Part shown: positions 1,412 through 16,783 of the stretch, in pieces
Numbering within the stretch: position 1 is the stretch's first letter
How the letters are laid out: the number at the start of each line of letters is the position of its first letter
Assembly (NCBI GenBank): GCA_013815505.1
Contig: JACDGA010000001.1
Coordinates: 1 to 25,637 of the forward strand
Direction of reading: 5' to 3'
Origin: Acidimicrobiia bacterium
Lineage (GTDB): Bacteria; Actinomycetota; Acidimicrobiia; Acidimicrobiales; Ilumatobacteraceae
Length of the DNA stretch: 25,637 nt
Notes under the pieces: generated by a model
What the model saw: only the letters and a program-made list of their open reading frames with translations
Told to the model about the DNA's origin: nothing
Databases searched by the model: none
Made by a program: the position numbers and the translations under genes

Positions 1412-1579
1412 CGCTCAACAGTCTGCCGTGATCCTGCGGGCTCGTCGTCCGCTTCGCTTTCTCCTCACGCCGCGTGCGACTCGTCGCTGGCGCTTCCCTC
1501 GTCGCATCCCCGCTGGCTCGGCGCGTTCCCGGTCGGGTGAGGTTGGGTGCAGCGAAATCGGCCGCCGTACGATGGAGGC

Positions 1580-2572
1580 GTGTCCGTCGGCAGCCGCCCG
1601 CTCGTCCCGTCGCGGCTCGCACCGCATGGAACGGCGCGCCCACCGCTCGTCCCCCACGACGCGGGCGACGTCGTCGGCCCTCCGCACGGCCACGCACCAG
1701 CGTCCACTGTCGCCGCCTACATCGCGCTGACGAAGCCGCGCATCATCGAGCTGCTGCTCATCACGACGGTGCCGACGATGATCCTTGCCCGGCAGGGCTG
1801 GCCGTCCACCGCGCTCGTGGTGGTCACAGTCATCGGCGGCACCCTCGCCGCGGGTGGCGCCAACGCCATCAACATGGTCGTCGACCGCGACATCGACCGG
1901 CTGATGCAGCGCACGCAAGGTCGCCCACTCGTCACCGGCGCCATGACGCCCACGTCGGCGCTCGCGTTCGCGCTCGCGCTCGAAGCCGCAGCGTTCGCCG
2001 TGCTGTGGTGGGGCGCCAACCTGCTCTCCGCCGTGTTGGCCCTGGCTGCAACGGCCTTCTACGTCGGCGTCTACACGCTCTGGTTGAAGCGCACCAGTCG
2101 CCAGAACATCGTCATCGGTGGGGCGGCCGGTGCGGTACCGGTGCTCGTCGGCTGGGCGGCCGTGCGCGACTCGCTCGGCTGGGAGCCGATCGTGTTGTTC
2201 GCCGTCATGTTCCTGTGGACGCCGCCGCACTTCTGGGCGCTGGCGATCAAGTACCGCGACGACTATCGCGCCGCCGGAGTGCCGATGTTGCCGAGCGTGG
2301 TGCCGCTGCGCGAGGCGGCACAACAGATGATGGCCTACACCGTGCTGCTCGTCGCCAGCACGTTGGTGCTCGCTCCCGTGGCCTCGCTGTCGTGGATCTA
2401 CACGGTCGCTGCGGCCCTGCTCGGCGCCGTCTTCGTGTCGCTCAATGTGGTACTCGTCCGCCGCCCCACACCGGCGATGAGCATGCGGGTCTTCACCTAC
2501 AGCATCACCTATGTGACCCTTCTCTTTGGGGCGATCGTGGTCGACGTGTTCGTCCGCCACGGCGTCTCGTGA
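1580..2572 (+). CDS. ctaB: Heme o synthase (protoheme IX farnesyltransferase)
   Basis: LTKPRII, NMVVDRDIDRLMQRTQGRPL, YTLWLKR, NIVIGGAAGA, FLWTPPHFWAL. Start chosen at GTG 1580, 6 nt after a TACGAT -10. Confidence 0.95.
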   Translation: MSVGSRPLVPSRLAPHGTARPPLVPHDAGDVVGPPHGHAPASTVAAYIALTKPRIIELLLITTVPTMILARQGWPSTALVVVTVIGGTLAAGGANAINMVVDRDIDRLMQRTQGRPLVTGAMTPTSALAFALALEAAAFAVLWWGANLLSAVLALAATAFYVGVYTLWLKRTSRQNIVIGGAAGAVPVLVGWAAVRDSLGWEPIVLFAVMFLWTPPHFWALAIKYRDDYRAAGVPMLPSVVPLREAAQQMMAYTVLLVASTLVLAPVASLSWIYTVAAALLGAVFVSLNVVLVRRPTPAMSMRVFTYSITYVTLLFGAIVVDVFVRHGVS

Positions 2573-2659: not shown

Positions 2660-4321
2660 ATGACCACCCTTGACACCAGCGCCGCCGCGACGACCAACGA
2701 CGGTCGCGCGCTCGTCGCTGACGACACGATCGGTGTGTTCGACTCGATGTCGGGCTGGCTGACCACCACCGATCACAAGCGCATCGGACGGCTCTTCGTC
2801 GTGTCCTCGCTCGTCGTGGGCGTCGCTGTGGCGCTGGTCGCCGTCGTGCTGGGCATCGAGCGGGTTGCCGACGGCGAGGTCTTCGATGCATCCGCCGTGC
2901 CGCAGCTGTTCGCTGCGTTCCGCTTCGGACTCGTGTACTCCCTCGCACTGCCGCTGATGGTGGGCCTCGCCATCGCCGTCGTGCCGCTGCAGGTCGGCGC
3001 GCGAGCGCTGGCGTTCCCGAGGCTGGCACTCACCGGCTTCTGGTTCTGGGCGAGCGGCCTCGTGTTCGTCGCCATCGCTCTCGCCAACAACGGCGGGCCG
3101 GCGGGGGGCGACCCCGACATGGTCGACCTCTTCCTCGCCGCCTACGCGCTGCAGCTGATCGGGCTGCTCGCAGCGGGCGTGTCCGTCGCCACCACCGTGC
3201 TGACGGCGAGAGTCCCCGGCATGACGCTGCGCCGGATCCCGCTGTTCTCCTGGTCGGCGCTCGTGCAGGCCATCGCGATCACGCTCACGCTGCCCCTGCA
3301 GATCGGGCTCGTCGTCTACCTGTTCGTCGACCACCGCAACGGCCGTCTCGCCTTCGGTGGCAACACCGGCATCGGGCAGTGGCTCGGGTACGGGGTCACC
3401 CAGCCGATGACATACGTCGCCGCGACCACCGTGTTCGGCCTCGCGCTCGAACTGGTCGCCGTCACGTTCGGTCGACGGTTGCAGCTCCGCAGCGTGCTCT
3501 ACGCCGGCGTCGGACTCGTCGGCGTGGGTGCCCTCGGTGCCGTCACGCAGCAGACCCGCAACTTCGAGGTCCTGTGGCGCACGGCCGGCGCGCCCGACGA
3601 CGCCGCCGAGACGCTCGGCGACATCGTCACGCTCGGGCTGTTCCTCGGGTTGCCGCTGCTCGGCGCCCTCACCGTGCTCGGCGCCGGCGGGTTGACCGCT
3701 GCGGCCGCCCCGAAGGTGCGCCCCCGGATCTCCGGTCCGTTCGTCATGTCGTTCCTCGGTGCCGGCATGGTCGTCACCGGCATGGTCGGCGGGCTCGTGT
3801 ACCCCATCGGGATCTTCGGACTCAGCGGCACCGTCTTCGAGGAGGCATGCCTCGTCTACGTCGTCTACGGCACAGTGCTCGCCGGCATGGGCGCCGTCGC
3901 CTACTGGGCGCCGAAGTGGTGGGGCCGCCTGATCCCCGACAAGCAGGTGCTCGGCCTCGGCGCGCTGGGCATGATCGCCACCGTGCTCGCCTCGCTGCCC
4001 TACGTCGTCGCAGGGTTCGCCGACCAACCGGCCGGGGCCGTCGACTTCGACTACGAGGGGCCGAAGGTGCTGTGGAACCTCGCCGTCACCGCGGGACACG
4101 CGCTGATGGCCGTCGTCGTGCTCGCCTTCGTCGGACTCGTGGCGAAGACAGCCACCGGTCGCGGTGGCGACGACGCGCACGACGACCCGTGGGGTGGTCA
4201 GACGCTCGAGTGGGCCACCGCGTCCCCGGCGCCGCGTGACAACTTCGCCGAGGTCGGCTCGGTGATGTCGCCCGAGCCGCTGCTCGACTCGACGGCCGAG
4301 CCGGACGAGGAAGGTCGTTGA
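2660..4321 (+). CDS. Cytochrome c oxidase subunit I-like protein lacking metal ligands (pseudo-CoxI)
   Basis: Keeps fold motifs TTDHKRIG, PLQVGARALAFPR, PGMTLRRIPLFSW, YWAPKWWGR, DPWGGQTLEW..SP.P..NF. Positions of the six His ligands read F, Q, A, V, C, V by manual alignment to CtaD at 7279. Confidence 0.85.
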   Translation: MTTLDTSAAATTNDGRALVADDTIGVFDSMSGWLTTTDHKRIGRLFVVSSLVVGVAVALVAVVLGIERVADGEVFDASAVPQLFAAFRFGLVYSLALPLMVGLAIAVVPLQVGARALAFPRLALTGFWFWASGLVFVAIALANNGGPAGGDPDMVDLFLAAYALQLIGLLAAGVSVATTVLTARVPGMTLRRIPLFSWSALVQAIAITLTLPLQIGLVVYLFVDHRNGRLAFGGNTGIGQWLGYGVTQPMTYVAATTVFGLALELVAVTFGRRLQLRSVLYAGVGLVGVGALGAVTQQTRNFEVLWRTAGAPDDAAETLGDIVTLGLFLGLPLLGALTVLGAGGLTAAAAPKVRPRISGPFVMSFLGAGMVVTGMVGGLVYPIGIFGLSGTVFEEACLVYVVYGTVLAGMGAVAYWAPKWWGRLIPDKQVLGLGALGMIATVLASLPYVVAGFADQPAGAVDFDYEGPKVLWNLAVTAGHALMAVVVLAFVGLVAKTATGRGGDDAHDDPWGGQTLEWATASPAPRDNFAEVGSVMSPEPLLDSTAEPDEEGR

Positions 4322-4896
4322 TGCAGGCCCTCGCAGCCGCCCCTGCCCCTGCGCCGCGCCGCCAGGTGCTCGTCGGCACCGCGTTCGCGTGCGTTGCCGG
4401 CACGATGCTCGTCGGCGGGATGCTGGCCGTCTGGCTCGTGATCCGTGACCGTGCCATCGCCGCAGAGGGGACGTGGGTGCCTCCCGACGTGGCGATCCCC
4501 GAAGTGCCGTCCAACATCATGCTGATCAGCTTCCTCGCGCTCGTCGTCTTTGCGCAGTGGGCGGTCTACGCCGCGCGCCGGGGCGAGCGGTCGAGCGCAG
4601 CGCTCGCACTCGGCGCCACGGGCCTCGTCGCGATCGCCGTCGTCAACGCCCAGGCGTTCGTCTACTCACAGATGGAGCTGCCGATCGCAGACACGGCCTA
4701 CGGGCCGATGTTCTACGCCGTCACCGGGGTCTTCCTGGTGCTGATGGTGGTCGGGCTGGCGTTCACCGTCGTGACGGCGTTCCGCGTGCTCGGTGGCCGC
4801 AGCGACGGCGACGTCGTCGCCGCCCACGCCCTGTACTGGTACTTCGTGGCGGCGGCGTTCGCTGCGATCTGGCTGATCGTGTACGTGACGAAGTGA
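4321..4896 (+). CDS. Cytochrome c oxidase subunit III-like protein, degenerate
   Basis: About five hydrophobic helices; MFYAVTG (cf. FYALTGFHG) and LYWYFV...IW (cf. LYWHFVD.VW). ATG overlaps the upstream stop (TGATG). Confidence 0.8.
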   Translation: MQALAAAPAPAPRRQVLVGTAFACVAGTMLVGGMLAVWLVIRDRAIAAEGTWVPPDVAIPEVPSNIMLISFLALVVFAQWAVYAARRGERSSAALALGATGLVAIAVVNAQAFVYSQMELPIADTAYGPMFYAVTGVFLVLMVVGLAFTVVTAFRVLGGRSDGDVVAAHALYWYFVAAAFAAIWLIVYVTK

Positions 4897-4912
4897 TCGG
4901 GAGCGCCTGACG

Positions 4913-6064
4913 ATGCTCACCAACGGGTCCAAGCTGCTCCTCGCCGGCACCACGCTGGCTGCGGTCGCAGCGATCGTCTACGGCGTCACGCAGGACGGCA
5001 CGCTCGGCGTCGTCGGCCTGCTGTCGGCCGCCATTGCCCTCGGTTTGCTCGCCGGCATCGTCATCGCCACCCGCGATGGCAACGTGTCGGCGATGGACGA
5101 GGCGGCGGCACAGACCGCTGTGGCAACCCACGTCGCGCCCGAGGGCAACATCTGGCCGCTCATCGTCGCCGGTGGTGCCGCACTCGTCGTGCTCGGGCTC
5201 GTGACGCAGTCGGCGTTCGTGATGCTCGGCATCGGGCTGCTGCTCATCGCGGGACTGCAGTGGATGGTCGACGCGTGGAGCCAGAGCGCATCTGCTGACG
5301 GCACGTTCAACCGCGACGCGAGGGCCCGCTTCGCCGGTCCGCTCGAGTTCCCGCTGCTCGCCACGGCGGTGGGGGGCGTGGTCGTCTTCTCGTTCAGCCG
5401 GATCATGCTGTTCCTGTCGAAGACGGCGGGTCCGGTGGGGTTCGTCGTCGCCGCACTGCTGATCCTCGCCGGCGGCTTCCTGTTCGCCTCGCAGCGGTCG
5501 ATGCGGTCCACCGCCGTTGCGGGCCTCACCGCGTTCGCTGCACTCGGCCTCGTCGCCGGCGGCGTGGCGGCCGGTCTCGACGGCGAGCGGTTCATCGAGG
5601 AGCACGAGACGACGGGCTTGCTCGGCGAGGAATCCGAGTGCGACACGACGGACGAGACCCACGCGGACGAGAACGCCTCACAGACGGTCGGCAACAAGGC
5701 CGCCATCATGGCCGACATCACCCTCGACGCCGAGGGTGAGCTGACGTCGAAGGCGCCCGGCCAGCAGGCCAGCCAGCGCATCGTGGTCGGGCGAGGCAAC
5801 CCGAGCAACATCATCTTCCACAACGAGAGCGACGAGCCGCGCCGGATCACGTTGACCACGGGGCAGCGGCCGCTGCTCGACGAGGAGGGTGAGGAGATCG
5901 AGGGTCAGACGACGCCCGATCAGCGCTGCACCGCACTCGCCGAGGAGGGCGGTTCGCAACTCCTCACGTTCAGAATCGACAAGCGCTCCGCCGTCGCCGA
6001 CGAGGCCTTCGAGTTGACGGTCCCAGGCGTCGAGGGACAGGCCATCGAAGTGGTGGTGCCGTGA
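4913..6064 (+). CDS. Membrane protein: CtaF-like N-terminus, extra TM helices and a C-terminal beta-rich, cupredoxin-like soluble domain
   Basis: N-terminal pattern P..NIWPLIVA...W resembles actinobacterial subunit IV (CtaF). About 7 TM segments, then an acidic beta-rich domain (NIIFHNESDEPRRITL...GGSQLLTFRI...FELTVPG) without a Cys/His/Met copper set. Domain calls are by eye. Confidence 0.55.
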   Translation: MLTNGSKLLLAGTTLAAVAAIVYGVTQDGTLGVVGLLSAAIALGLLAGIVIATRDGNVSAMDEAAAQTAVATHVAPEGNIWPLIVAGGAALVVLGLVTQSAFVMLGIGLLLIAGLQWMVDAWSQSASADGTFNRDARARFAGPLEFPLLATAVGGVVVFSFSRIMLFLSKTAGPVGFVVAALLILAGGFLFASQRSMRSTAVAGLTAFAALGLVAGGVAAGLDGERFIEEHETTGLLGEESECDTTDETHADENASQTVGNKAAIMADITLDAEGELTSKAPGQQASQRIVVGRGNPSNIIFHNESDEPRRITLTTGQRPLLDEEGEEIEGQTTPDQRCTALAEEGGSQLLTFRIDKRSAVADEAFELTVPGVEGQAIEVVVP

Positions 6065-7272
6065 CGGCTCCCGCTACCGTGATCCGCGTGCCCTCCCACC
6101 GAAGGTTGATGCTCGCCGTCGGTGCAATCGCAGCGGTCACGCTCACTGCCTGCGCCGAAGATGCGCCCCAGGACACGTGGCAGCCCGAAGGCGAGAACTC
6201 CACCCGCATCCACAACCTGCAGTGGCCCGTGTTCGCCATCGCCGGCGTCGTCGGACTGCTCGTCTTCCTCGCCATCGTGTGGGTCGTCATCCGCTATCGC
6301 GACCGCGGGCAGCCCATCCCGAAGCAGTCGCACGGCAAGCCGGCGCTCGAGATCGCGCTCACGATCCTGCCCGCACTGATCCTCGTGGGGGTCGCCGTGC
6401 CGACCGTCGGCACGCTGATGGCATTGGCCGAGACCGACGACACCGAGTGCTCGGTCAACGTCTATGGGCAGCAGTGGTGGTGGGAGGTCGAATATCCCGA
6501 GCAGAAGGGCTGTGGCGGCATCGATCGCGAGTTCGTCACGAGCGGCCAGATGGTGATCCCCACCGGCACGAAGGTGCTGGTCAGCGGTACGAGCCGTGAC
6601 GTCATCCACAGCTGGTGGATCCCGGCGTTGAACGGCAAGAAGGACATGGTCCCCGGTCGCGTGCACACCGTGCGAACCCAGGCCGACGAGCCAGGGATCT
6701 ACGCCGGCCAGTGCACGGAGTTCTGCGGTCTGTCGCACGCCAACATGCGCATGGAGGTGGTCGCCCTCGACCCCGGCGACTTCGAGACGTGGAAGGCCAA
6801 CCAACTGAAGCCGTATGCCGCGCCCGAGGAGGGCTCGATCGCCGCTGAGGGCGAGTCGGCGTTCATCTCGCAATGCGCCCGCTGCCACGTCGTCGACGGC
6901 CTCGACGACGGCGGCGTCAACGCGCCCGAGCAGTTCGTCTACTCGCGCACGGCGCCCAACCTCACGAACCTGATGACGCGCAACACGTTTGCCGGCGCGA
7001 CGTTCGACCTGCTCACCGACGAGTGCCGCGAACGCGTGTGGGAGGCGACGCCGGAGGAGTTCGGCGAGCGCTACCTCGAGGGCGTCACGCCGGAGTGCCT
7101 CAACGAGGTCGACCTCAGGGCGTGGATCAAGAACGCTCCGGCGATGAAGCCGATGTACACCGACGGCACGAAGCTCGGCCCGACTGACGGCAGGTCACGC
7201 GGCATGCCCGCCCTCGGGCTCAACGACGACCAGGCCGATCAGCTCGTCGCCTACCTCTTGGAACGGAACTAG
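6061..7272 (+). CDS. ctaC: Cytochrome c oxidase subunit II with fused cytochrome c (caa3 type), lipoprotein
   Basis: Lipobox LTAC, GQQWWWEVEY, CuA ligands DVIHSWW and CTEFCGLSHANM, heme c motif CARCH. GTG overlaps the upstream TGA. Confidence 0.95.
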   Translation: MTAPATVIRVPSHRRLMLAVGAIAAVTLTACAEDAPQDTWQPEGENSTRIHNLQWPVFAIAGVVGLLVFLAIVWVVIRYRDRGQPIPKQSHGKPALEIALTILPALILVGVAVPTVGTLMALAETDDTECSVNVYGQQWWWEVEYPEQKGCGGIDREFVTSGQMVIPTGTKVLVSGTSRDVIHSWWIPALNGKKDMVPGRVHTVRTQADEPGIYAGQCTEFCGLSHANMRMEVVALDPGDFETWKANQLKPYAAPEEGSIAAEGESAFISQCARCHVVDGLDDGGVNAPEQFVYSRTAPNLTNLMTRNTFAGATFDLLTDECRERVWEATPEEFGERYLEGVTPECLNEVDLRAWIKNAPAMKPMYTDGTKLGPTDGRSRGMPALGLNDDQADQLVAYLLERN

Positions 7273-7278
7273 CCCACG

Positions 7279-9300
7279 ATGGCCATCATCGAGCGCCCCG
7301 CCACCGAACCCGTCGTCGCTCCCACCCCCACTCCCGCCCCAATCGTGACGCCCTCCGAGGCGTTCGGCACGTTCCGCCGACCCGTCGAGACCACGGGATG
7401 GCGAGCATGGGTGTTCACCGTCGACCACAAGAAGATCGGCGTCATGTACGGCGCCGCTGCGCTGTTCTTCTTCGTGGTCGCCGGTCTCGAGGCGCTGCTC
7501 ATCCGTGCCCAGCTCGCCGGGCCGGAGGGCACGGTGCTATCGGCCGACGTCTACAACCAGATGTTCACGATGCACGCGACGACGATGATCTTCCTGTTCG
7601 CGATTCCGATGGCCGCCGGCCTCGCCAACTACCTCGTCCCGTTGCAGATCGGCGCCCGTGACGTCGCCTTCCCGCGCATCAACGCCTTTGGCTTCTGGTG
7701 CTTCCTCGCCGGCGGCATCGTCCTCAACCTCTCGTGGTTCCTCGGTGGCGCTGCCGACGGCGGCTGGTTCATGTACCAGCCCAACGCCTCCGTGCCGTTC
7801 TCGCCCACCAACGGCGTCGACTTCTGGGCGCTCGGCCTGCAGATCGCCGGCATCGCCTCGCTCACCGGCGCCATCAACCTGATCGTCACGATCCTCAACA
7901 TGCGGGCGCCGGGGATGAGCCTGATGCGCATGCCGGTGTTCACCTGGATGATCCTCGTGACCCAGTTCCTGCTCGTGTTCGCCATCCCGGTCATCACGGT
8001 GGCGTTCTTCCTGCTCACGTTCCAGCGAAGTTTCGACGCCGCCTTCTTCTCGCCGGCAGCCGGCGCCGACCCGCTGCTGTGGCAGCACCTGTTCTGGATC
8101 TTCGGGCATCCCGAGGTGTACATCCTCGTGCTGCCGTCGTTCGGCATCGTCTCCGAGGTGCTCCCGGTCTTCTCGAAGAAGCCACTGTTCGGCTACCCCT
8201 TCGTCGTCTTCTCGGGCATCGCCATCGGCTTCCTCGGGTGGGGCGTGTGGGCGCACCACATGTTCGCCTCGGGTCTCGGCCCCGTGTCGGTCGCCGTGTT
8301 CGCCACGGCGACGATGGCGATCGCCGTGCCGACCGGGGTCAAGATCATCAACTGGACGCTGACGATGTGGGGCGGCAAGTTGCGCTTCACCACGGCGATG
8401 CTCTTCGCCATGGGCCTCGTCGTGCAGTTCACGATCGGTGGCCTGTCGGGCGTCACGCACTCGGTCGCGCCGTCGGACACCCAGCAGACCGACACGTACT
8501 ACATCGTCGCCCACTTCCACTACGTCCTGTTTGGCGGGTCGGTGCTCGGGTTCTTCGCCGGCTTCTACTACTGGTGGCCGAAGGTCTTCGGCAAGTGCCT
8601 CAGCGAACGGCTGGGACGTTGGAACTTCTGGCTGATGATCATCGGGATGAACTTGACGTTCGGTCCGATGCACATCCTCGGCCTGCAGGGACAGCCGCGA
8701 CGGATGTACATCTGGACGACGGAGCGCTCGGGTGAGGGGTTCTTCAACCTCGGGTTCTGGAACCTCGTGTCGTCCATCGGTGCGTTCATCCTGGCCGTCG
8801 GTGTGCTCTTCTTCCTGACCAACATCGTCCACACGCATCGCAAGGGTGCGCCGGCGCCGCTTGACCCGTGGGACGCACGCACGCTCGAGTGGATTACGAC
8901 GAACCCGCCGAAAGAGCACAACTTCGACCGCGTCCCAACCGTCAGCCACCTCGACGAGTTCTTCCATCGCAAGTACGAGGACGTCGGCGAGGGTGATGCC
9001 CACGATCTCCGTGCGGTGGCGACCGCCGAGGAGGTGCTGGCCGCCGAGCAGGCACAGGCCGACGCCCAGATCCACATGCCGTCGCCGAGCTACTGGCCGA
9101 TCGTGGTCGCCGCCACGCTGCCGGTCATCGCCCTCGGGATCATCTACGGCGTGTACATCGTGTCCATCGTGGGTGCGCTGCTGATGGTGTTTGGGATCTT
9201 CGGCTGGGCGATGGAGCCCGGCACCGCGCCCGACTCGGACTTCGATCCGTCCCCGGTCGACGACGGCGGGCCGACCACGGAGCTGGTTCGAAGTGAGTGA
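7279..9300 (+). CDS. ctaD: Cytochrome c oxidase subunit I (A1 type) with C-terminal extension
   Basis: FTMHA, WIFGHPEVY, VWAHHMF, VAHFHY, D-pathway GARDVAFPRIN, K-pathway VPTGVKI, GQPRR. Extra IHMPSPSYWP plus hydrophobic helices at the C-terminus. Confidence 0.98.
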   Translation: MAIIERPATEPVVAPTPTPAPIVTPSEAFGTFRRPVETTGWRAWVFTVDHKKIGVMYGAAALFFFVVAGLEALLIRAQLAGPEGTVLSADVYNQMFTMHATTMIFLFAIPMAAGLANYLVPLQIGARDVAFPRINAFGFWCFLAGGIVLNLSWFLGGAADGGWFMYQPNASVPFSPTNGVDFWALGLQIAGIASLTGAINLIVTILNMRAPGMSLMRMPVFTWMILVTQFLLVFAIPVITVAFFLLTFQRSFDAAFFSPAAGADPLLWQHLFWIFGHPEVYILVLPSFGIVSEVLPVFSKKPLFGYPFVVFSGIAIGFLGWGVWAHHMFASGLGPVSVAVFATATMAIAVPTGVKIINWTLTMWGGKLRFTTAMLFAMGLVVQFTIGGLSGVTHSVAPSDTQQTDTYYIVAHFHYVLFGGSVLGFFAGFYYWWPKVFGKCLSERLGRWNFWLMIIGMNLTFGPMHILGLQGQPRRMYIWTTERSGEGFFNLGFWNLVSSIGAFILAVGVLFFLTNIVHTHRKGAPAPLDPWDARTLEWITTNPPKEHNFDRVPTVSHLDEFFHRKYEDVGEGDAHDLRAVATAEEVLAAEQAQADAQIHMPSPSYWPIVVAATLPVIALGIIYGVYIVSIVGALLMVFGIFGWAMEPGTAPDSDFDPSPVDDGGPTTELVRSE

Positions 9301-9946
9301 CGCAGCCACGCTCGAGGCCCAGGTGGCTCACGACGACCACGGCGATCACGGTGGGCACGGTGGGAACGGCGCTGGCCACCCACCCACCACGACTGGCCTG
9401 TCACACAACAAGCTCGGCATGTGGCTGTTCCTCGGGTCGGAGTGCCTGCTGTTCGGTGGGTTGATCAGCACGTACATGCTCTACCGCGGGCGAGCCAGCG
9501 AGAACCTCGGTCCCGACCAGATCTACGACCTCCCGTTCACGTCGGTGTCGAGCTTCGTGCTGCTGATGAGCTCGCTCACCATGGTGCTCGCCGTCTCGGC
9601 GGCCGGCCGCAAGGACGTGCGCAACGTGAAGCTGTGGCTCACCGTCACGGCACTGCTCGGCGCGACGTTCGTCGGTGGCCAGGTGTACGAGTTCACCAGC
9701 TTCTACCGCGAGGGCCTCGGCTTCACCACGAGCTTGTTCTCGTCGAGCTTCTACGCCCTCACCGGCTTCCACGGCGTCCACGTCTCGGTGGGCATCATCA
9801 TGTTGCTCGCCGTCGTCGGCATGATCTCTCGTGACCGCATCCCTGGCGACAGGGCTGAGGTCGTCGAGCTGGTCGGGCTCTACTGGCACTTCGTCGACAT
9901 CGTGTGGATCGTGATCTTCACCCTCGTCTACCTGATCCCGGCGTGA
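9293..9946 (+). CDS. ctaE: Cytochrome c oxidase subunit III (5-helix type)
   Basis: GMWLFLGSECLLFG, FYALTGFHGVHVSVG, GLYWHFVDIVW. GTG 9293 preceded by GGAG and overlapping the ctaD end. Confidence 0.95.
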   Translation: MSDAATLEAQVAHDDHGDHGGHGGNGAGHPPTTTGLSHNKLGMWLFLGSECLLFGGLISTYMLYRGRASENLGPDQIYDLPFTSVSSFVLLMSSLTMVLAVSAAGRKDVRNVKLWLTVTALLGATFVGGQVYEFTSFYREGLGFTTSLFSSSFYALTGFHGVHVSVGIIMLLAVVGMISRDRIPGDRAEVVELVGLYWHFVDIVWIVIFTLVYLIPA

Positions 9947-9959
9947 GCGAGAAGGTGTC

Positions 9960-10319
9960 ATGAGCGAATCCACCACCCTCGACGAGACGGCAACCGGCAC
10001 GGATGCCACCGCGCAGCACTCGCCCGAGCCCCCCGACGACGGGCACGCTCACGGCGCCACCGACGGTCAGTACATCGTCATCGCCCTGATCCTGGCCGTC
10101 ATCACCGCCGCCGAGGTGTCGCTCAGCTACATGGACGTCGGGCCGATCTTCATCCCCGCCCTGCTCGTGATGATGGCCGTCAAGTTCGTCATCGTCGTCA
10201 GCTACTTCATGCACCTGAAGTTCGACAACCGGATCTTCTCGTTCCTCTTCTACTCGGGACTCCTCCTCGCCCTCGGCGTCTACGTCCTCGCCCTCGCCAC
10301 CTTCGAATTCTTCGCGTAG
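9960..10319 (+). CDS. Prokaryotic cytochrome c oxidase subunit IV family protein
   Basis: YIVIALILAVITAAEV, AVKFVIVVSYFMHLKFD (FMHL motif), three TM helices. Confidence 0.9.
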   Translation: MSESTTLDETATGTDATAQHSPEPPDDGHAHGATDGQYIVIALILAVITAAEVSLSYMDVGPIFIPALLVMMAVKFVIVVSYFMHLKFDNRIFSFLFYSGLLLALGVYVLALATFEFFA

Positions 10320-10505
10320 TCGCACTCACTCGCCGTCGCCGCCTTCGGCGGCTCGGCTCCGTTCCTGCGAGTTTGAGGGCCTCGCTGCGCTCGGCGGGGC
10401 GCGACTGGTCTGGGCCAACGTCTGTCGCGCCGGCCAAGCCGGCGCTCGTGCGTCCGCCTGATACCAGGGCCGCCTTCGTCCTCTGCTCGCCGGTAGGTTC
10501 GTCGA

Positions 10506-11825
10506 GTGCTCGATCTGCGTGCGATTCGTCACGATCCCGGAGCGGTACGTGACGCGCTCGCACGGCGGCATTCGGCAGCCGTGCTCAGTGACTTCGATCG
10601 GGCGGTGGAGCTGGATCTCGGTGTACGGGAGCTGACTGCGGCGCGTGACCGGGCACGGGCGGAGATCAACGAAATCTCGAAGGAGGTCGGTGCGCTGCGG
10701 CGCGCCGGTGACGTCGAGGGAGCCGAGCGCCTGCAAGCGCGCAGTCGAGAGCTCGGGTCGAACGAGAAGAATCTCGCCGCGCAGCACGGTCTGGCGGAGA
10801 CCTCGCTGCGGGAGGTGTTGCTCGGGATTCCCAACGTGCCGCATGCCGATGCGCCCGATGGCACGAGTGACGCCGACAACCCGGTGGTCACCGGGCCGGT
10901 CGGGATGCCGGACGAGTTTGCCCCGCACCAGTGTGTGCCGCACTGGGAGACCGGCGCCGCGCTCGGCATCCTCGACGCCGAACGGGCGGTGAAGATCAGC
11001 GGCGCGATGTTCAACCTGCAGCGTGGCCTCGGCGCGACCCTCGCCAGGGCGCTGTGTCAGTACGCCCTCGACTGCAACGCCGACGCTTTCGAGGAGGTCC
11101 GCCCACCGTCGCTCGTCACCTCGGCGACGCTGACGGCGAGCGGCCAGCTGCCGAAGTTCGCCGACGACGCGTACCACATCGCCAACGACGACCTCTGGTG
11201 CATCCCGACGGCCGAGGTGCCGCTCACCTCGCTCTACGGCGGGGAGATCGTGCCCGAGGCGTCACTCCCGATCCGGATGATGGCGGCGACCCCCTGCTAC
11301 CGGCGCGAAGCCGGATCGGCGGGACGCGACACGCGGGGCATGCTGCGCGTCCACGAGTTCGACAAGGTCGAGATCCTCGCCGTGTGCACGCCCGAGCAAG
11401 CGCCGGCGTTGCTCGACGACATGGTCGCCAGGGCGGAGGCCACCATCGCCGGCCTCGGTCTGGCGTATCGCGTGATCGAGATCTGCACCGGCGACCTCGG
11501 CCAGAGCCATCACCGCAGCCTCGACATCGAGGTCTACGCGCCGGGTGCCGAACAGTGGCTCGAGGTCTCGTCGGTCAGCTGGTTCAGCGACTACCAGGCC
11601 AGGCGCGCCGACATCCGCGTGCGGCGCGAGCCGCGCGACGGCGAGCAGCAGCCCAAGGGCACCGAGATCGCCCACACGCTCAACGGTTCGGCGCTCGCCG
11701 TGCCACGCGTGTGGGCCGCGATCCTCGAGCACTGCCGCCAGCCCGACGGGTCCGTGCTGATTCCCGACGTGCTGCACCCGTACACGCGCGGGGCGACGCG
11801 GATCTCCCTCCCGGCTTCGAGCTGA
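10506..11825 (+). CDS. serS: Serine--tRNA ligase
   Basis: IPTAEVP, CYRREAGSAGRDTRGMLRVHEFDKVE, EVSSVS, HTLNGSALAVPR. Confidence 0.97.
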   Translation: MLDLRAIRHDPGAVRDALARRHSAAVLSDFDRAVELDLGVRELTAARDRARAEINEISKEVGALRRAGDVEGAERLQARSRELGSNEKNLAAQHGLAETSLREVLLGIPNVPHADAPDGTSDADNPVVTGPVGMPDEFAPHQCVPHWETGAALGILDAERAVKISGAMFNLQRGLGATLARALCQYALDCNADAFEEVRPPSLVTSATLTASGQLPKFADDAYHIANDDLWCIPTAEVPLTSLYGGEIVPEASLPIRMMAATPCYRREAGSAGRDTRGMLRVHEFDKVEILAVCTPEQAPALLDDMVARAEATIAGLGLAYRVIEICTGDLGQSHHRSLDIEVYAPGAEQWLEVSSVSWFSDYQARRADIRVRREPRDGEQQPKGTEIAHTLNGSALAVPRVWAAILEHCRQPDGSVLIPDVLHPYTRGATRISLPASS

Positions 11826-12543: not shown

Positions 12544-13383
12544 ATGCTCGTTTGGATGGACCTCGAGATGACGGGGCTCGACCACCAGCAGGACGTCATC
12601 GTCGAGATCGCCACGCTTGTCACCGACGACGACCTGAACATCGTGGCCGAGGGGCCCGACCTCGTCATCTACCAGCCCGACGAGGTCCTCGACAAGATGG
12701 ATCCGTTCGTGGCCGGCATGCACACGCGCTCCGGCCTGCTCGAGGCCATTCGCACGTCCCACGTGACGCTGCAGGACGCCGGGGCGGCGACGTACGAGTT
12801 CATCCGGTCGTACGCGCCGGTGCCGCGCACCGTGCCGCTGTGCGGCAACTCGATCGGCACCGATCGCCGTTTCCTCGCGGCCTATCTCCCCGAGATCGAG
12901 CAGCACCTGCACTACCGGTCCGTCGACGTGTCGAGCGTCAAGGAGCTCGTCAAGCGCTGGTACCGGCCGGTGTGGGACGAGCGGCCACGCAAGGAGGGGA
13001 CGCACCGGGCGCTCGACGACATCCGCGACAGCGTCGACGAGCTGCGCTTCTACCGGCGCCACGCCTTCGTGCCGCCCGTGACCGGCGTCCGGCACGTCGT
13101 GCTGTTCCGGTGGGTCGACGACGCCACGCCCGAGCAGATCGCGACGGTGAAGAGCGCGCTCGCCTCGTTGCCGTTGCTGATCCCCGAGATCAGCGGCTAC
13201 CGCGTCGGCGCCGACCTCGGCCTCGCCGGCGACAACGCGCAGTTCGCCGTCGTTGGCGACTTCGCCGACGAGGAGGCGTGGACGACCTACCGTGACCACC
13301 CAGAACACCAGAAGATCATCGCCGAGCTGATCCGTCCCCTCGTCGCGCAGCGCTGGGCAGTGCAGTTCCGCAGCGGCTCGTGA
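12544..13383 (+). CDS. orn: Oligoribonuclease fused in frame to a C-terminal Dabb (stress-responsive alpha/beta barrel) domain
   Basis: LVWMDLEMTGLD, LCGNSIGTDRRFL, HYRSVDVSSVKEL, HRALDDIRDS; then RHVVLFRW...YRDHPEHQ typical of Dabb. Confidence 0.9.
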   Translation: MLVWMDLEMTGLDHQQDVIVEIATLVTDDDLNIVAEGPDLVIYQPDEVLDKMDPFVAGMHTRSGLLEAIRTSHVTLQDAGAATYEFIRSYAPVPRTVPLCGNSIGTDRRFLAAYLPEIEQHLHYRSVDVSSVKELVKRWYRPVWDERPRKEGTHRALDDIRDSVDELRFYRRHAFVPPVTGVRHVVLFRWVDDATPEQIATVKSALASLPLLIPEISGYRVGADLGLAGDNAQFAVVGDFADEEAWTTYRDHPEHQKIIAELIRPLVAQRWAVQFRSGS

Positions 13384-14357
13384 GGGCCGTCGTGATCCCC
13401 GAGTACGGGGACGCCGATGTCCTTGCGGTCGAGGACGTCGACGATCCCGTGCCGGGTCCCGACGAGATCGTCGTCGCCGTGCGATCGACCGCCCTCAACC
13501 GCGCCGACCTGTTGCAGCGCATGGGTCTCTACCCCGACCCGAGCGGGCGCACGCCCGAGATCCCCGGCCTGGAGTATGCGGGGGTCGTCAGCGCGGTCGG
13601 CACGCGCGTGCACGCCTGGCGCGAGGGCGACAAGGTGATGGGCATCGAGTCCGGTGGCTGTCACGCCGAGCTGGTGGCGACCCACGGGCGTCAGGCGATG
13701 CGGGTCCCCGACGGCGTGCCGCTCGCCGACGCCGGCGCGATCCCCGAGGTCTTCGTGACCGCATGGGACGCCCTCGTCCGCCAGGGTGGGCTGACGGCCG
13801 GTCGGTGGGCACTCGTCCACGCCGGCGCCTCCGGCGTCGGAACCGCCGCGATCCAACTCGCCAAGGCAATGGGCGCGCACATCGCTGTGACGTGCTCGTC
13901 CGGCAAGGCCGACCGTTGCCGCGAGCTCGGCGCCGACCTCGTCCTCGAGCGCAGTCCCGCCGCGTGGCGCGATGCGCTGCGCGACGCCGTGCCCGACGGC
14001 GTCGATGTCGTGCTCGACGTCGTCGGTGGCGACGAGATCGAGCGCAACCTGCACGTCGTGCGCACCGAGGGTCGCATCATCCAGGTCGGCGTGATGGGCG
14101 GCGGCGCCGCATCGGTCAACGCCGGGCTGCTGCTGGCGAAGCGCGTGCACTGGATCGGCACCACGTTGCGGTCACGTCCGCTGGAGTCGAAGATCGCGGT
14201 CAGCCAGCAGTTCCAGCGTGAGGTGGCGCCGTGGTTCAGCGACGGGACGCTCGTCCCCGTCATCGATCGTCGTCTCGCGCTCGACGATGTCGTCGAGGGG
14301 CACCGCGTGATGGAGTCCAACGCGAACGTCGGCAAGATCGTGCTCGACGTCGCCTGA
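13380..14357 (+). CDS. NAD(P)H-quinone oxidoreductase, PIG3/zeta-crystallin (MDR) family
   Basis: ALNRADLLQRMGLYP, PGLEYAG, IPEVFVTAW, LVHAGASGVGTAAIQLA, GKIVL. Confidence 0.9.
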   Translation: MRAVVIPEYGDADVLAVEDVDDPVPGPDEIVVAVRSTALNRADLLQRMGLYPDPSGRTPEIPGLEYAGVVSAVGTRVHAWREGDKVMGIESGGCHAELVATHGRQAMRVPDGVPLADAGAIPEVFVTAWDALVRQGGLTAGRWALVHAGASGVGTAAIQLAKAMGAHIAVTCSSGKADRCRELGADLVLERSPAAWRDALRDAVPDGVDVVLDVVGGDEIERNLHVVRTEGRIIQVGVMGGGAASVNAGLLLAKRVHWIGTTLRSRPLESKIAVSQQFQREVAPWFSDGTLVPVIDRRLALDDVVEGHRVMESNANVGKIVLDVA

Positions 14358-15299: not shown

Positions 15300-15848
15300 A
15301 TGGGTGCAGGAGCCAACGTCCGGCCGCGGCTGCTCGTGGCCTCGTTGCTGATCGCTGCCGTGGTTGGCATCGGCGGCGGCCTCTGGTGGGGCACCCGCTC
15401 CGACGATGACACGGCGGACGCGACGTTGAACGATGCGTCGAGCGTCGGCGAACCGTTGCCCGACGTCGAGCTGCTCGACGTCGACGGCGACCCGGTGTCG
15501 ACGGGCGACCTCGTGGGCCGTCCCCTCGTCGTCAACCTCTGGTACACGGCGTGCGCACCGTGCCGTCGGGAGATGCCGGCGCTCGCCGACGCGGCCCGCC
15601 GGCTCGACGGTGAGGTGCGCTTCGTCGGCATCAACACACAGGACGACGTCGACACAATGGTCGACTTCGCCGACGAGGTGGACGCCGACTACGAGCTGCT
15701 GCGCGACCCCGATTTCACGTTCTTCAACGAGGTTCGTGTGATGGGCTTCCCGACCACGTTCTTCGTCGACTCCGACGGCACGATCGTCGCCCAGACGGGT
15801 GAGGTGGATGCGGATGAGCTGCAGCGCCAGATCGACGCGCTGCGATGA
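15300..15848 (+). CDS. TlpA/ResA-family membrane-anchored thiol-disulfide oxidoreductase
   Basis: N-terminal TM anchor, LVVNLWYTACAPCRREMP, GFPTTFFVD. Confidence 0.9.
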   Translation: MGAGANVRPRLLVASLLIAAVVGIGGGLWWGTRSDDDTADATLNDASSVGEPLPDVELLDVDGDPVSTGDLVGRPLVVNLWYTACAPCRREMPALADAARRLDGEVRFVGINTQDDVDTMVDFADEVDADYELLRDPDFTFFNEVRVMGFPTTFFVDSDGTIVAQTGEVDADELQRQIDALR

Positions 15849-16783
15849 TCGTCGCCGCCGTCCTCGACAGCGATCAGCTCAGCCTGTCGCTCGTGCGTGG
15901 CATGGTGGCGTCCGTCAACCCGTGCGGCTTCGTGTTGCTGCCGACGTTCCTCCTCTACTTCCTCGGCGCCGGCGGTGGGGACGCCTCGACGGCTGCAGGT
16001 GATCGGGCGGGGATCCGGCGTGCGCTCGTCGTCGGCGGTTCGGTGTCCGCCGGGTTCATGGCGGTGTTCGTCGTCGCCGGACTCGTCATCGACCAGGTCA
16101 GCAACTGGTTCCTCGAGCGGGCGTTCTACGCCACGGCTATCGTCGGTGCCGGTCTCGTCGTGCTCGGCATCGCGATGCTGCTTGGCTTCCGCCTGCCGAT
16201 CAGCACGCCGTCGCTGAGCGTGGCGGCCGAGCGTCGCACGGTGCGCACGATGTTCTTCTACGGCTGTGCGTACGCAGTGGCCTCCATCGGGTGCACGATC
16301 GGCTTGTTCATCCCGACGATGTTCGGCGCCGGCCGGCAGGACGGAGCGCTCGCCGGCATCACGAACGGCCTTGCCTACGGCTTCGGGATGGCCCTCGTCG
16401 TGGTGGCGCTGACCGTGTCGCTCGCGTTTGCCCGCATCGGGATCGTGTCGTGGCTGCGTGCCTCGATGCGCTACGTGGAACGCGTCGCCGCCGTGTTCGT
16501 GGTCGCCTCGGGGCTCTACCTCATCTACTACTTCTGGTTCGTCGATCTCCGCAACGGGTCCGGTGGCGTCACATCGCGAGTCGATCGCGTGAGCTCGTGG
16601 ATCACCGCTCGCGTCGACGAACACTCGACCATCGTCGTCGTCGGGCTCGGTGCCGTCGTGGCGATCGCCGTGCTCATGGTCGCAGCCCGCAGCAGCCGCT
16701 CGGGGGCTCCGCCCGCTGGTGGTGACGTGGTCGACACTACGGTCGCCGGCGGTGCAGAACCGACGACCTCGACTCGGACCTGA
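15845..16783 (+). CDS. ccdA: Cytochrome c biogenesis CcdA/DsbD-like membrane protein
   Basis: VNPCGFVLLP and ASIGCTIG (two TM Cys), LAYGFGM. ATGA overlap with tlpA. Confidence 0.8.
   Translation: MIVAAVLDSDQLSLSLVRGMVASVNPCGFVLLPTFLLYFLGAGGGDASTAAGDRAGIRRALVVGGSVSAGFMAVFVVAGLVIDQVSNWFLERAFYATAIVGAGLVVLGIAMLLGFRLPISTPSLSVAAERRTVRTMFFYGCAYAVASIGCTIGLFIPTMFGAGRQDGALAGITNGLAYGFGMALVVVALTVSLAFARIGIVSWLRASMRYVERVAAVFVVASGLYLIYYFWFVDLRNGSGGVTSRVDRVSSWITARVDEHSTIVVVGLGAVVAIAVLMVAARSSRSGAPPAGGDVVDTTVAGGAEPTTSTRT

Follow-up and report, generated by a model that had tools for sequence, protein, structure and literature searches.

An A-family oxidase core turned pseudoenzyme in the caa3 operon of Acidimicrobiales

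We analyzed a stretch of 25,637 nucleotides (nt) from an Acidimicrobiia bacterium (Acidimicrobiales; Ilumatobacteraceae), contig JACDGA010000001.1 of assembly GCA_013815505.1, here called the window. Its source genome is a metagenome-assembled genome (MAG) that is 78% complete and consists of 535 contigs. Three genes, for which we coined the names psI, psIII and psX, lie between ctaB and ctaC of a caa3-type cytochrome oxidase cluster and form a module that is a pseudoenzyme form of an A-family oxidase core. A complete subunit I, III and IV plus cupredoxin set has been emptied of its cofactor ligands, yet it is under selection order-wide beside the sole working oxidase. In our estimate, there is about an even chance that this cofactor-free replica of an oxidase core acts as a non-catalytic structural partner of the caa3 enzyme.

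Three oxidase-like genes without cofactor ligands

The gene order on the plus strand is ctaB-psI-psIII-psX-ctaC-ctaD-ctaE-ctaF, with the following features:

1547..2572, plus strand: ctaB, heme O synthase (PF01040, 213 bits; NF003349, 390 bits, above cut-off); start codon uncertain, homology starting near residue 51
2660..4321, plus strand: psI, cofactor-free subunit I paralogue of 553 amino acids with an ATG start (PF00115, 88 bits)
4321..4896, plus strand: psIII, divergent subunit-III-like protein of 191 amino acids from the ATG (PF00510, 46.6 bits)
4913..6064, plus strand: psX, 383 amino acids, seven transmembrane (TM) helices and a C-terminal cupredoxin domain without copper ligands (PF12270, 20.3 bits; AlphaFold2 and Foldseek)
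6061..7272, plus strand: ctaC, subunit II with a fused cytochrome c domain (TIGR02866, 181 bits, above cut-off; PF00034)
7279..9300, plus strand: ctaD, working subunit I with a C-terminal extension of two TM helices (TIGR02891, 694 bits, above cut-off; PF00115, 520 bits)
9293..9946, plus strand, start approximate: ctaE, subunit III (PF00510, 65.8 bits; CyoC/QoxC-type NCBIfam matches)
9960..10319, plus strand: ctaF, Bacillus-type small subunit IV (PF03626 COX4_pro, 39.5 bits; TIGR02229 caa3_sub_IV, 31 bits)

The initial annotation had described three intact open reading frames (ORFs) of 553, 191 and 383 amino acids on the same strand between ctaB and ctaC, and their coordinates proved exact to the base. 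The couplings it had pointed out are likewise read in the sequence: the TGA stop of psI (4319-4321) shares a base with the ATG of psIII (4321-4323) in 'TGATG', and the GTG start of ctaC (6061-6063) overlaps the stop of psX (6062-6064) in 'GTGA'. A 16-nt spacer with GGGAG lies upstream of psX, and the ORF listing allows psIII to be extended upstream to a TTG at 4318. Scanning the cluster for promoters and terminators revealed no convincing signal within it, and the module and the caa3 genes are probably on one transcript, with the module translationally coupled to ctaC. Long ORFs are frequent by chance in the 69% GC DNA of the window; that psI, psIII and psX are real genes is shown by family matches, more than 1000 homologues and ratios of nonsynonymous to synonymous substitution rates (dN/dS) well below 1.

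psI matches the subunit I family PF00115 with 88.1 bits (E 7.5e-25), above the cut-off of 34.8, compared to 520 bits for the neighbouring CtaD, with which it shares 26% identity. Against the NCBIfam equivalog TIGR02891 (CtaD_CoxA) it reaches 159 bits, below the cut-off of 670.75. Heme-copper oxidases (HCOs) are defined by six His residues, of which two bind the low-spin heme, one the high-spin heme and three CuB. In our alignment, the six positions read F, Q, Q, Q, C and V in the psI of the window, and all six His are present in each of the 18 true CtaD sequences aligned with it. The neighbouring CtaD has the six His as well as the Glu, Tyr and Lys residues, confirming the initial observation that psI lacks the ligands which the gene next door retains. 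Moreover, the proton-pathway motif reads GARALAFPRLA where CtaD has GARDVAFPRIN, so that the Asp and Asn of the D-channel are gone, the Glu of HPEVY is replaced by Met, the K-channel Lys by Ala, and the heme-propionate Arg pair RR by AG.

The fold, in contrast to the ligands, is confidently predicted to be that of a subunit I with 12 TM helices. The AlphaFold2 model of psI has a pLDDT of 88.7 and a pTM of 0.90, and Foldseek aligns it with mycobacterial, corynebacterial and E. coli subunit I at a TM-score of 0.78. More than 1000 psI homologues with 50-62% identity were found, mostly in Ilumatobacteraceae and Acidimicrobiia MAGs, and they carry public labels such as 'cbb3-type cytochrome c oxidase subunit I', 'cytochrome o ubiquinol oxidase subunit 1' or similar. 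Because psI is annotated as an oxidase, metabolic reconstructions of these Acidimicrobiia, which are abundant in water and soil, overestimate the number of oxidases by one. Conservation of 90% or higher is found at about 150 positions among 121 proteins of the ligand-free clade to which the psI of the window belongs (clade A, see below), and the CtaD-like loop and surface motifs DHK, PLQxGAR, FPR, RxPGM, WxPK and LEW are retained. Clade-A-specific residues with at least 90% conservation are E67, R68, R88, W241, Q248, R273, R277, Q297, Q298, D385, E394, E395, Y403, Q456 and H480; several such residues, absent from true CtaD and from the related clade B, occupy former heme and CuB positions. Arg88 and Glu394/395 may form a salt bridge.

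psIII scores 46.6 bits against PF00510, above the cut-off of 23.8, and is 28% identical to CtaE (E 4e-13). Its best NCBIfam match, NF050119 (aa3_CtaE_Actin), remains at 40.8 bits below the cut-off of 190. psX is composed of seven predicted TM helices followed by a C-terminal domain of about 120 residues. Residues 6-119 resemble PF12270, the actinobacterial CtaF family with four TM helices, at a weak 20.3 bits that is under the cut-off of 26.9; 16 of 42 psX family members match PF12270 with an E-value of at most 0.01 (best 1.7e-5), and the psX profile reaches only an E-value of 0.57 against M. tuberculosis CtaF (8hcr_H). As proposed initially, psI and psIII resemble subunits I and III, and the N-terminal part of psX weakly resembles subunit IV.

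The C-terminal domain of psX is predicted to be a cupredoxin beta-sandwich (AlphaFold2 pLDDT about 88), for which Foldseek recovers 4hcf, 4hcg and 4hci (TMt 0.67-0.73) together with auracyanin and laccase domains at E-values of about 1e-4. The type-1 His-Cys-His-Met ligands are missing in the psX of the window and in two other aligned psX of clade A, and the positions conserved among 42 clade A psX do not make up a type-1 copper site. This domain had initially been called subunit-II-like. The cupredoxin fold supports that description, but sequence kinship does not: hhalign of the psX profile against CtaC detected no relation (probability 1.9%), BLASTP of clade B psX against CtaC found nothing within the soluble domain, and psX contains no match to Pfam COX2 (PF00116). 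A derivation from subunit II was rejected because the hhalign and BLASTP comparisons with CtaC were empty; the domain is instead related to membrane-anchored type-1 blue-copper proteins. The second half of psX, comprising TM helices 5-7 and the cupredoxin domain, is homologous to a blue-copper protein with a 3-TM anchor whose gene directly follows ctaG in a sister order, TM helices 5-7 corresponding to this anchor. Homologues of psX are all labelled 'hypothetical protein', and one is from the cultured Desertimonas flava. Since cultured relatives carry the module, as the presence of the psX family in this species illustrates, biochemical tests are feasible.

Invariant features of the psX family are Cys243, Cys339 and an acidic linker. 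The linker, which connects TM7 to the cupredoxin domain (residues 224-262, about 5582-5698), is highly acidic and nearly invariant across the family, with H231, E232, C243, E248, A251, D252, S256 and Q257 as near-invariant residues; it could be a docking or cation-binding patch. As judged from the sequences, Cys243 and Cys339 are more simply explained as a disulfide in the extracytoplasmic domain than as a metal site.

Selection, gene order and distribution

To place the module in its wider context, the gene order was compared in 31 module-bearing loci from ten families of Acidimicrobiales. As far as the sequence extends, the order ctaB-psI-psIII-psX-ctaC-D-E-F is found in 31 of 31 loci, which answers the initial question of whether synteny is kept among relatives; the exceptions in reach are three contigs that stop before the distal genes and one fetched stretch without a ctaB match. 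Moreover, ctaB is immediately upstream of psI in every module-bearing locus whose sequence extends there. None of the psI, psIII and psX genes in the 31 genomes has an internal stop, the single flagged psX (locus L036) being due to a search match that overran the gene's own stop codon. Among 200 sampled genomes of the class, every one of the 21 from the family of the window has psI, as do most of the other families in its order, and the distance to the true ctaD is always about 4.5 kb. Candidates beyond this distribution did not hold up. 'Two matches' in families f17, f14 and f30, outside the order, turned out to be two pieces of one true CtaD, and three further candidates (L037, L041 and L068) are true aa3_Actin-type oxidases, L042 being another A-type oxidase. 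Thus, the module is specific to the order Acidimicrobiales.

Compared with a 96.6%-identical relative, psI has a dN/dS of 0.128. Across eleven within-genus or close pairs, the median ratios are 0.37 for psI, 0.34 for psIII and 0.43 for psX, and for the flanking genes they are 0.18 (ctaD), 0.13 (ctaE), 0.26 (ctaC), 0.44 (ctaF) and 0.16 (ctaB). The per-gene values of the module, 0.13-0.43, are therefore not near 1. Two points could be taken to favour decay, namely that the evolutionary rate of the module is two to three and a half times that of CtaD, and that all catalytic residues have been lost. Decay of psI, psIII and psX is nevertheless excluded, because the genes are unbroken in 31 genomes, have dN/dS ratios of 0.13-0.43 and about 150 conserved positions, and encode a fold that is predicted with confidence. 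We consequently assign practically no probability to a decaying remnant or dead duplicate, which the order-wide intactness of the genes likewise contradicts, and the initial suggestion that selection maintains a non-catalytic role is borne out.

Origin of the module and stepwise loss of cofactors

The initial annotation had contrasted the trio with the true copies next door. The module is not a copy of these caa3 genes; tree and profile scores place it closest to actinobacterial aa3-type subunits. In searches of the PDB, the psI profile scored best with mycobacterial and corynebacterial CtaD (336-320 bits), followed by the aa3-600 oxidase of B. subtilis (306 bits) and the caa3 oxidase of Thermus (256 bits); the neighbouring true CtaD, in contrast, had its best score with aa3-600. 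A phylogenetic tree of 49 sequences, rooted with a single outgroup, groups the caa3-type CtaD of Acidimicrobiales and of the sister orders in a clade with 100/100 support that does not include psI, and recovers psI as sister to aa3_Actin-type CtaD with moderate support (85/62) under this single outgroup. A tandem duplication of the adjacent ctaD was rejected on account of this tree and of the 26% identity. psIII, with aa3_CtaE_Actin as its best match, and the N-terminus of psX, with its weak match to PF12270, also point to actinobacterial families. The module most likely descends from an A-family oxidase of the classical actinobacterial aa3 type.

Relative to the aa3 core of the actinobacterial bcc-aa3 supercomplex (e.g., PDB 6adq, 7rh5 and 7q21), which provides the best sequence and fold matches for psI, the module is without the six His, the proton-channel residues and the two heme-propionate Arg, and its scores lie far under the NCBIfam cut-offs (159 vs 670; 40.8 vs 190). 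It also is without a CuA domain, and has a cupredoxin of the type-1 kind fused to a CtaF-like part instead. With the adjacent caa3 oxidase, which is of the Bacillus/Thermus style, it has the operon, strand, coupling, A-family fold and set of subunit types in common, although psI is only distantly similar to its CtaD and falls outside the caa3 CtaD clade. With amicyanin, auracyanin and Cupredoxin_1 proteins, psX shares the fold (4hcf, TMt 0.68-0.73), and in clade B also the copper site; compared to these blue-copper proteins, the psX of the window lost the four copper ligands and gained four CtaF-like helices by fusion.

Clade B was found by a search with the psI of an outlying locus (L040). 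A comparison of 240 psI homologues, 120 per clade, separates it from the ligand-free clade A that holds the window. In clade B, all 120 proteins retain both low-spin heme His, 99 the heme a3 His, 119 a Glu or Asp at the HPEVY position and 104 the Tyr. Arg takes the place of the first CuB His in each of the 120, and the other two CuB His are lost. Clade A shows few exceptions to ligand loss: a His in TM2 in 11 of 120 proteins, a His at CuB site 1 in one, and a His in a gapped region at CuB site 3 in 15. psX of clade B contains a canonical type-1 copper site with the motifs YHN and CDFHxNM, and matches the Pfam families Cupredoxin_1 and Copper-bind with 42 and 27 bits. The loci of clade B share the gene order of the other loci, and in them a divergent ctaA lies upstream and Caa3_CtaG downstream.

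When CtaD is used as the outgroup, psI is monophyletic and clade B is the earliest branch, sister to all other psI. Among the remaining psI, one family (L031) keeps the low-spin His pair, others have a single His and the family of the window has none. Since clade B keeps heme ligands and a type-1 copper site, and since all psI are without CuB ligands, cofactors were lost stepwise. CuB was lost first, in the common ancestor, then the ligand of the high-spin heme, and then the low-spin ligands and the copper site. The topology of psI mirrors that of CtaD, which indicates vertical co-inheritance. The rate of psI relative to that of CtaD is 1.9 in clade B and 2.9 in clade A, and the corresponding values for psX are 2.4 and 3.6; constraint on the module relaxed as cofactors were lost. 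The initial term 'non-catalytic' therefore fits the lineage of the window but not clade B, which keeps its heme ligands and its type-1 copper site. The natural series, from no CuB but hemes plus type-1 copper, over low-spin heme ligands only, to nothing, allows direct tests of how a respiratory enzyme turns into a pseudoenzyme and of the contribution made by the bare scaffold.

Two observations in clade B are of note. First, its invariant Arg at the position of the first CuB His (proteins P0247-P0366) neighbours the kept high-spin heme ligand, Tyr and Glu/Asp, and this distal pocket could support a chemistry other than oxygen reduction. Second, locus L060 encodes a thioredoxin-like (AhpC-TSA/Redoxin) protein between psX and ctaC (9722-10291), and a second thioredoxin-like gene follows ctaG (15470-15985); these are likely maturation factors of the copper site within the operon.

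The absence of every heme and copper ligand in the lineage of the window means that its module neither reduces oxygen nor carries electrons, and with no conserved ligand left a redox role is judged very unlikely. A cryptic redox enzyme, with heme or copper bound by non-canonical ligands such as a Cys at the a3 position or the Cys pair of psX, would be compatible with the Cys that replaces the a3 His in the psI of the window, and with the invariant C243 and C339 and the conserved H231/E232 of psX. The residue at the a3 position, however, is Ala in 68, Val in 32, Ser in 14, Thr in 4 and Cys in just 2 of 120 clade A proteins, clade A psX has none of the four type-1 copper ligands, and the Cys pair of psX is better accounted for by the disulfide mentioned above. 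We regard such an enzyme as highly improbable.

Literature searches yielded no published description of the module, in agreement with the initial statement that no system of this kind was known. A recent survey of HCOs states that the active-site His are completely conserved in all HCO families except gNOR, the first family said to replace even one of them (Murali et al., 2024, PMC11214002). With gNOR and other variant HCOs described there, the module shares its membership of the superfamily and an altered active site, but gNOR changes a single active-site His, whereas clade B has lost the three CuB His and clade A all six His. The available part of a review of oxidase assembly proteins makes no mention of such paralogues.

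The possible role of the module beside the caa3 oxidase

In three complete or near-complete relatives (G008, G095 and G171), the COX1 family is represented solely by psI and the true ctaD next to it, and caa3 is therefore their only HCO. Their cytochrome b genes are short and b6-like. For the module we propose the following arrangement. psI with 12 helices, psIII with five helices and psX would form a membrane subcomplex shaped like an oxidase core, with psX joining its CtaF-like 4-helix part to an outward-facing cupredoxin domain anchored by three helices. This subcomplex would sit beside caa3, the sole working oxidase, as a non-catalytic partner. Judging from clade B, the module probably served at first to hold or place a blue-copper electron carrier beside caa3, and in the lineage of the window a structural role alone would remain, that is organizing, stabilizing or helping to assemble caa3. 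We infer such a partnership, including the assembly of the subcomplex and its contact with caa3, because the folds, the motifs shared with CtaD and the clade-specific polar residues are conserved and because the module is coupled to ctaC. The peptidase-derived core proteins of the mitochondrial complex III are a precedent for dead enzyme homologues that are kept for architecture. Here, in contrast, a whole multi-subunit set has been emptied, and it is its incorporation into a larger complex that we infer.

Several points weigh against a structural partnership. Rate covariation with the caa3 subunits is weak and mixed: in a mirror-tree analysis of 24 genomes with partial correlations, in which the pairs are not independent, the highest values were 0.53 for psX-ctaD and 0.44 for psI-psIII, psI-ctaB reached 0.28, and no single partner is favoured, so that the analysis does not discriminate between the possible roles. 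In other orders of the class, seven loci have an orthologous ctaC-D-E-F-ctaG operon without the module, and no ctaB match was found in the stretches fetched around ctaC in these loci. This type of caa3 can evidently work in the absence of the module, as it does in the sister orders, and in principle does not need it. Moreover, the conserved polar and charged residues R88, Q248, Q297/Q298, E394/E395 and H480 could mean a new activity. Finally, the constant position right after ctaB suits a role in assembly equally well.

In the latter case the module would be an assembly factor or template, in which a subunit-I-shaped receiver works with CtaB (and CtaA) and delivers heme O/A or subunits to CtaD or CtaC, its association with the oxidase being impermanent. 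The module is always directly downstream of ctaB, and ctaB is beside the caa3 operon only where the module exists. In addition, clade B keeps heme ligands, one of its operons contains a thioredoxin-like maturation gene and so mixes structural with assembly genes, and the rates show weak positive partial correlations with those of ctaB (0.22-0.30). These correlations, however, do not exceed those with ctaE or ctaD. Furthermore, the clade of the window has no heme ligand and the replacing residues vary (F/Y/H, A/V/S, V/L), sister orders build an orthologous caa3 without the module, and a three-protein replica coupled to ctaC is an odd form for a chaperone. We therefore consider an assembly factor rather unlikely, though it is the main rival of the structural partnership.

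The clade-A-specific residues that are at least 90% conserved, several of them at former heme and CuB positions, also bear on a third reading, in which the psI scaffold would have turned into a channel or transporter, with the new polar residues lining a path for protons, other ions or small molecules. The same residues could simply be salt bridges or hydrogen bonds that fill the empty pockets, the residues of the D- and K-channels have been lost, and the family searches gave no transporter-like match. A repurposed pathway thus appears quite improbable, more so than an assembly factor. A structural partnership with caa3 remains our preferred explanation, although the data do not favour any one of the four roles offered initially, which were a pseudo-protomer, a docking scaffold for complex III or alternative complex III, an assembly template and a channel. 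In a more elaborate version, which we hold to be as doubtful as the assembly factor, the module would be an emptied aa3 descendant whose early form was a CuB-less HCO with hemes and blue copper that passed electrons, for instance from quinol, to caa3; the shell left in Ilumatobacteraceae would be a permanent pseudo-protomer of a hetero-supercomplex, and caa3 would have become dependent on it.

A number of further observations concern the working oxidases and their surroundings. Residues 593-647 of the working CtaD form a two-helix extension that matches the last helices of PF12270 (E 1.8e-5) and DUF7541, so that subunit I of the working oxidase has incorporated a portion of a subunit-IV-like element, whereas psX contains an entire CtaF-like part. 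After ctaG, locus L065 from another order (genome G048, 12600-13834) encodes two blue-copper proteins, both with His-Cys-His-Met sites; one is 3-TM-anchored, sharing its anchor with psX, and the other is lipoprotein-like. By their sequences, they are probably electron donors to caa3. In the window, Caa3_CtaG is absent between ctaF and serS (10319-10506) and ctaA is absent beside ctaB (1200-1547), unlike in close relatives and clade B; the CtaG matches of the MAG are on contigs C505 and C448 and its CtaA match is on C474. On contig C448, the MAG of the window (G000, locus L002:1254-3416) furthermore contains a second, intact CtaD of the aa3_Actin type (NF050116, 810 bits), which is followed by a Caa3_CtaG gene (about 3485-4150), and a long cytochrome b of the actinobacterial type is found on contig C269. 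This second CtaD and cytochrome b, which are absent from the complete relatives, represent either a real bcc-aa3 branch or contamination of the bin.

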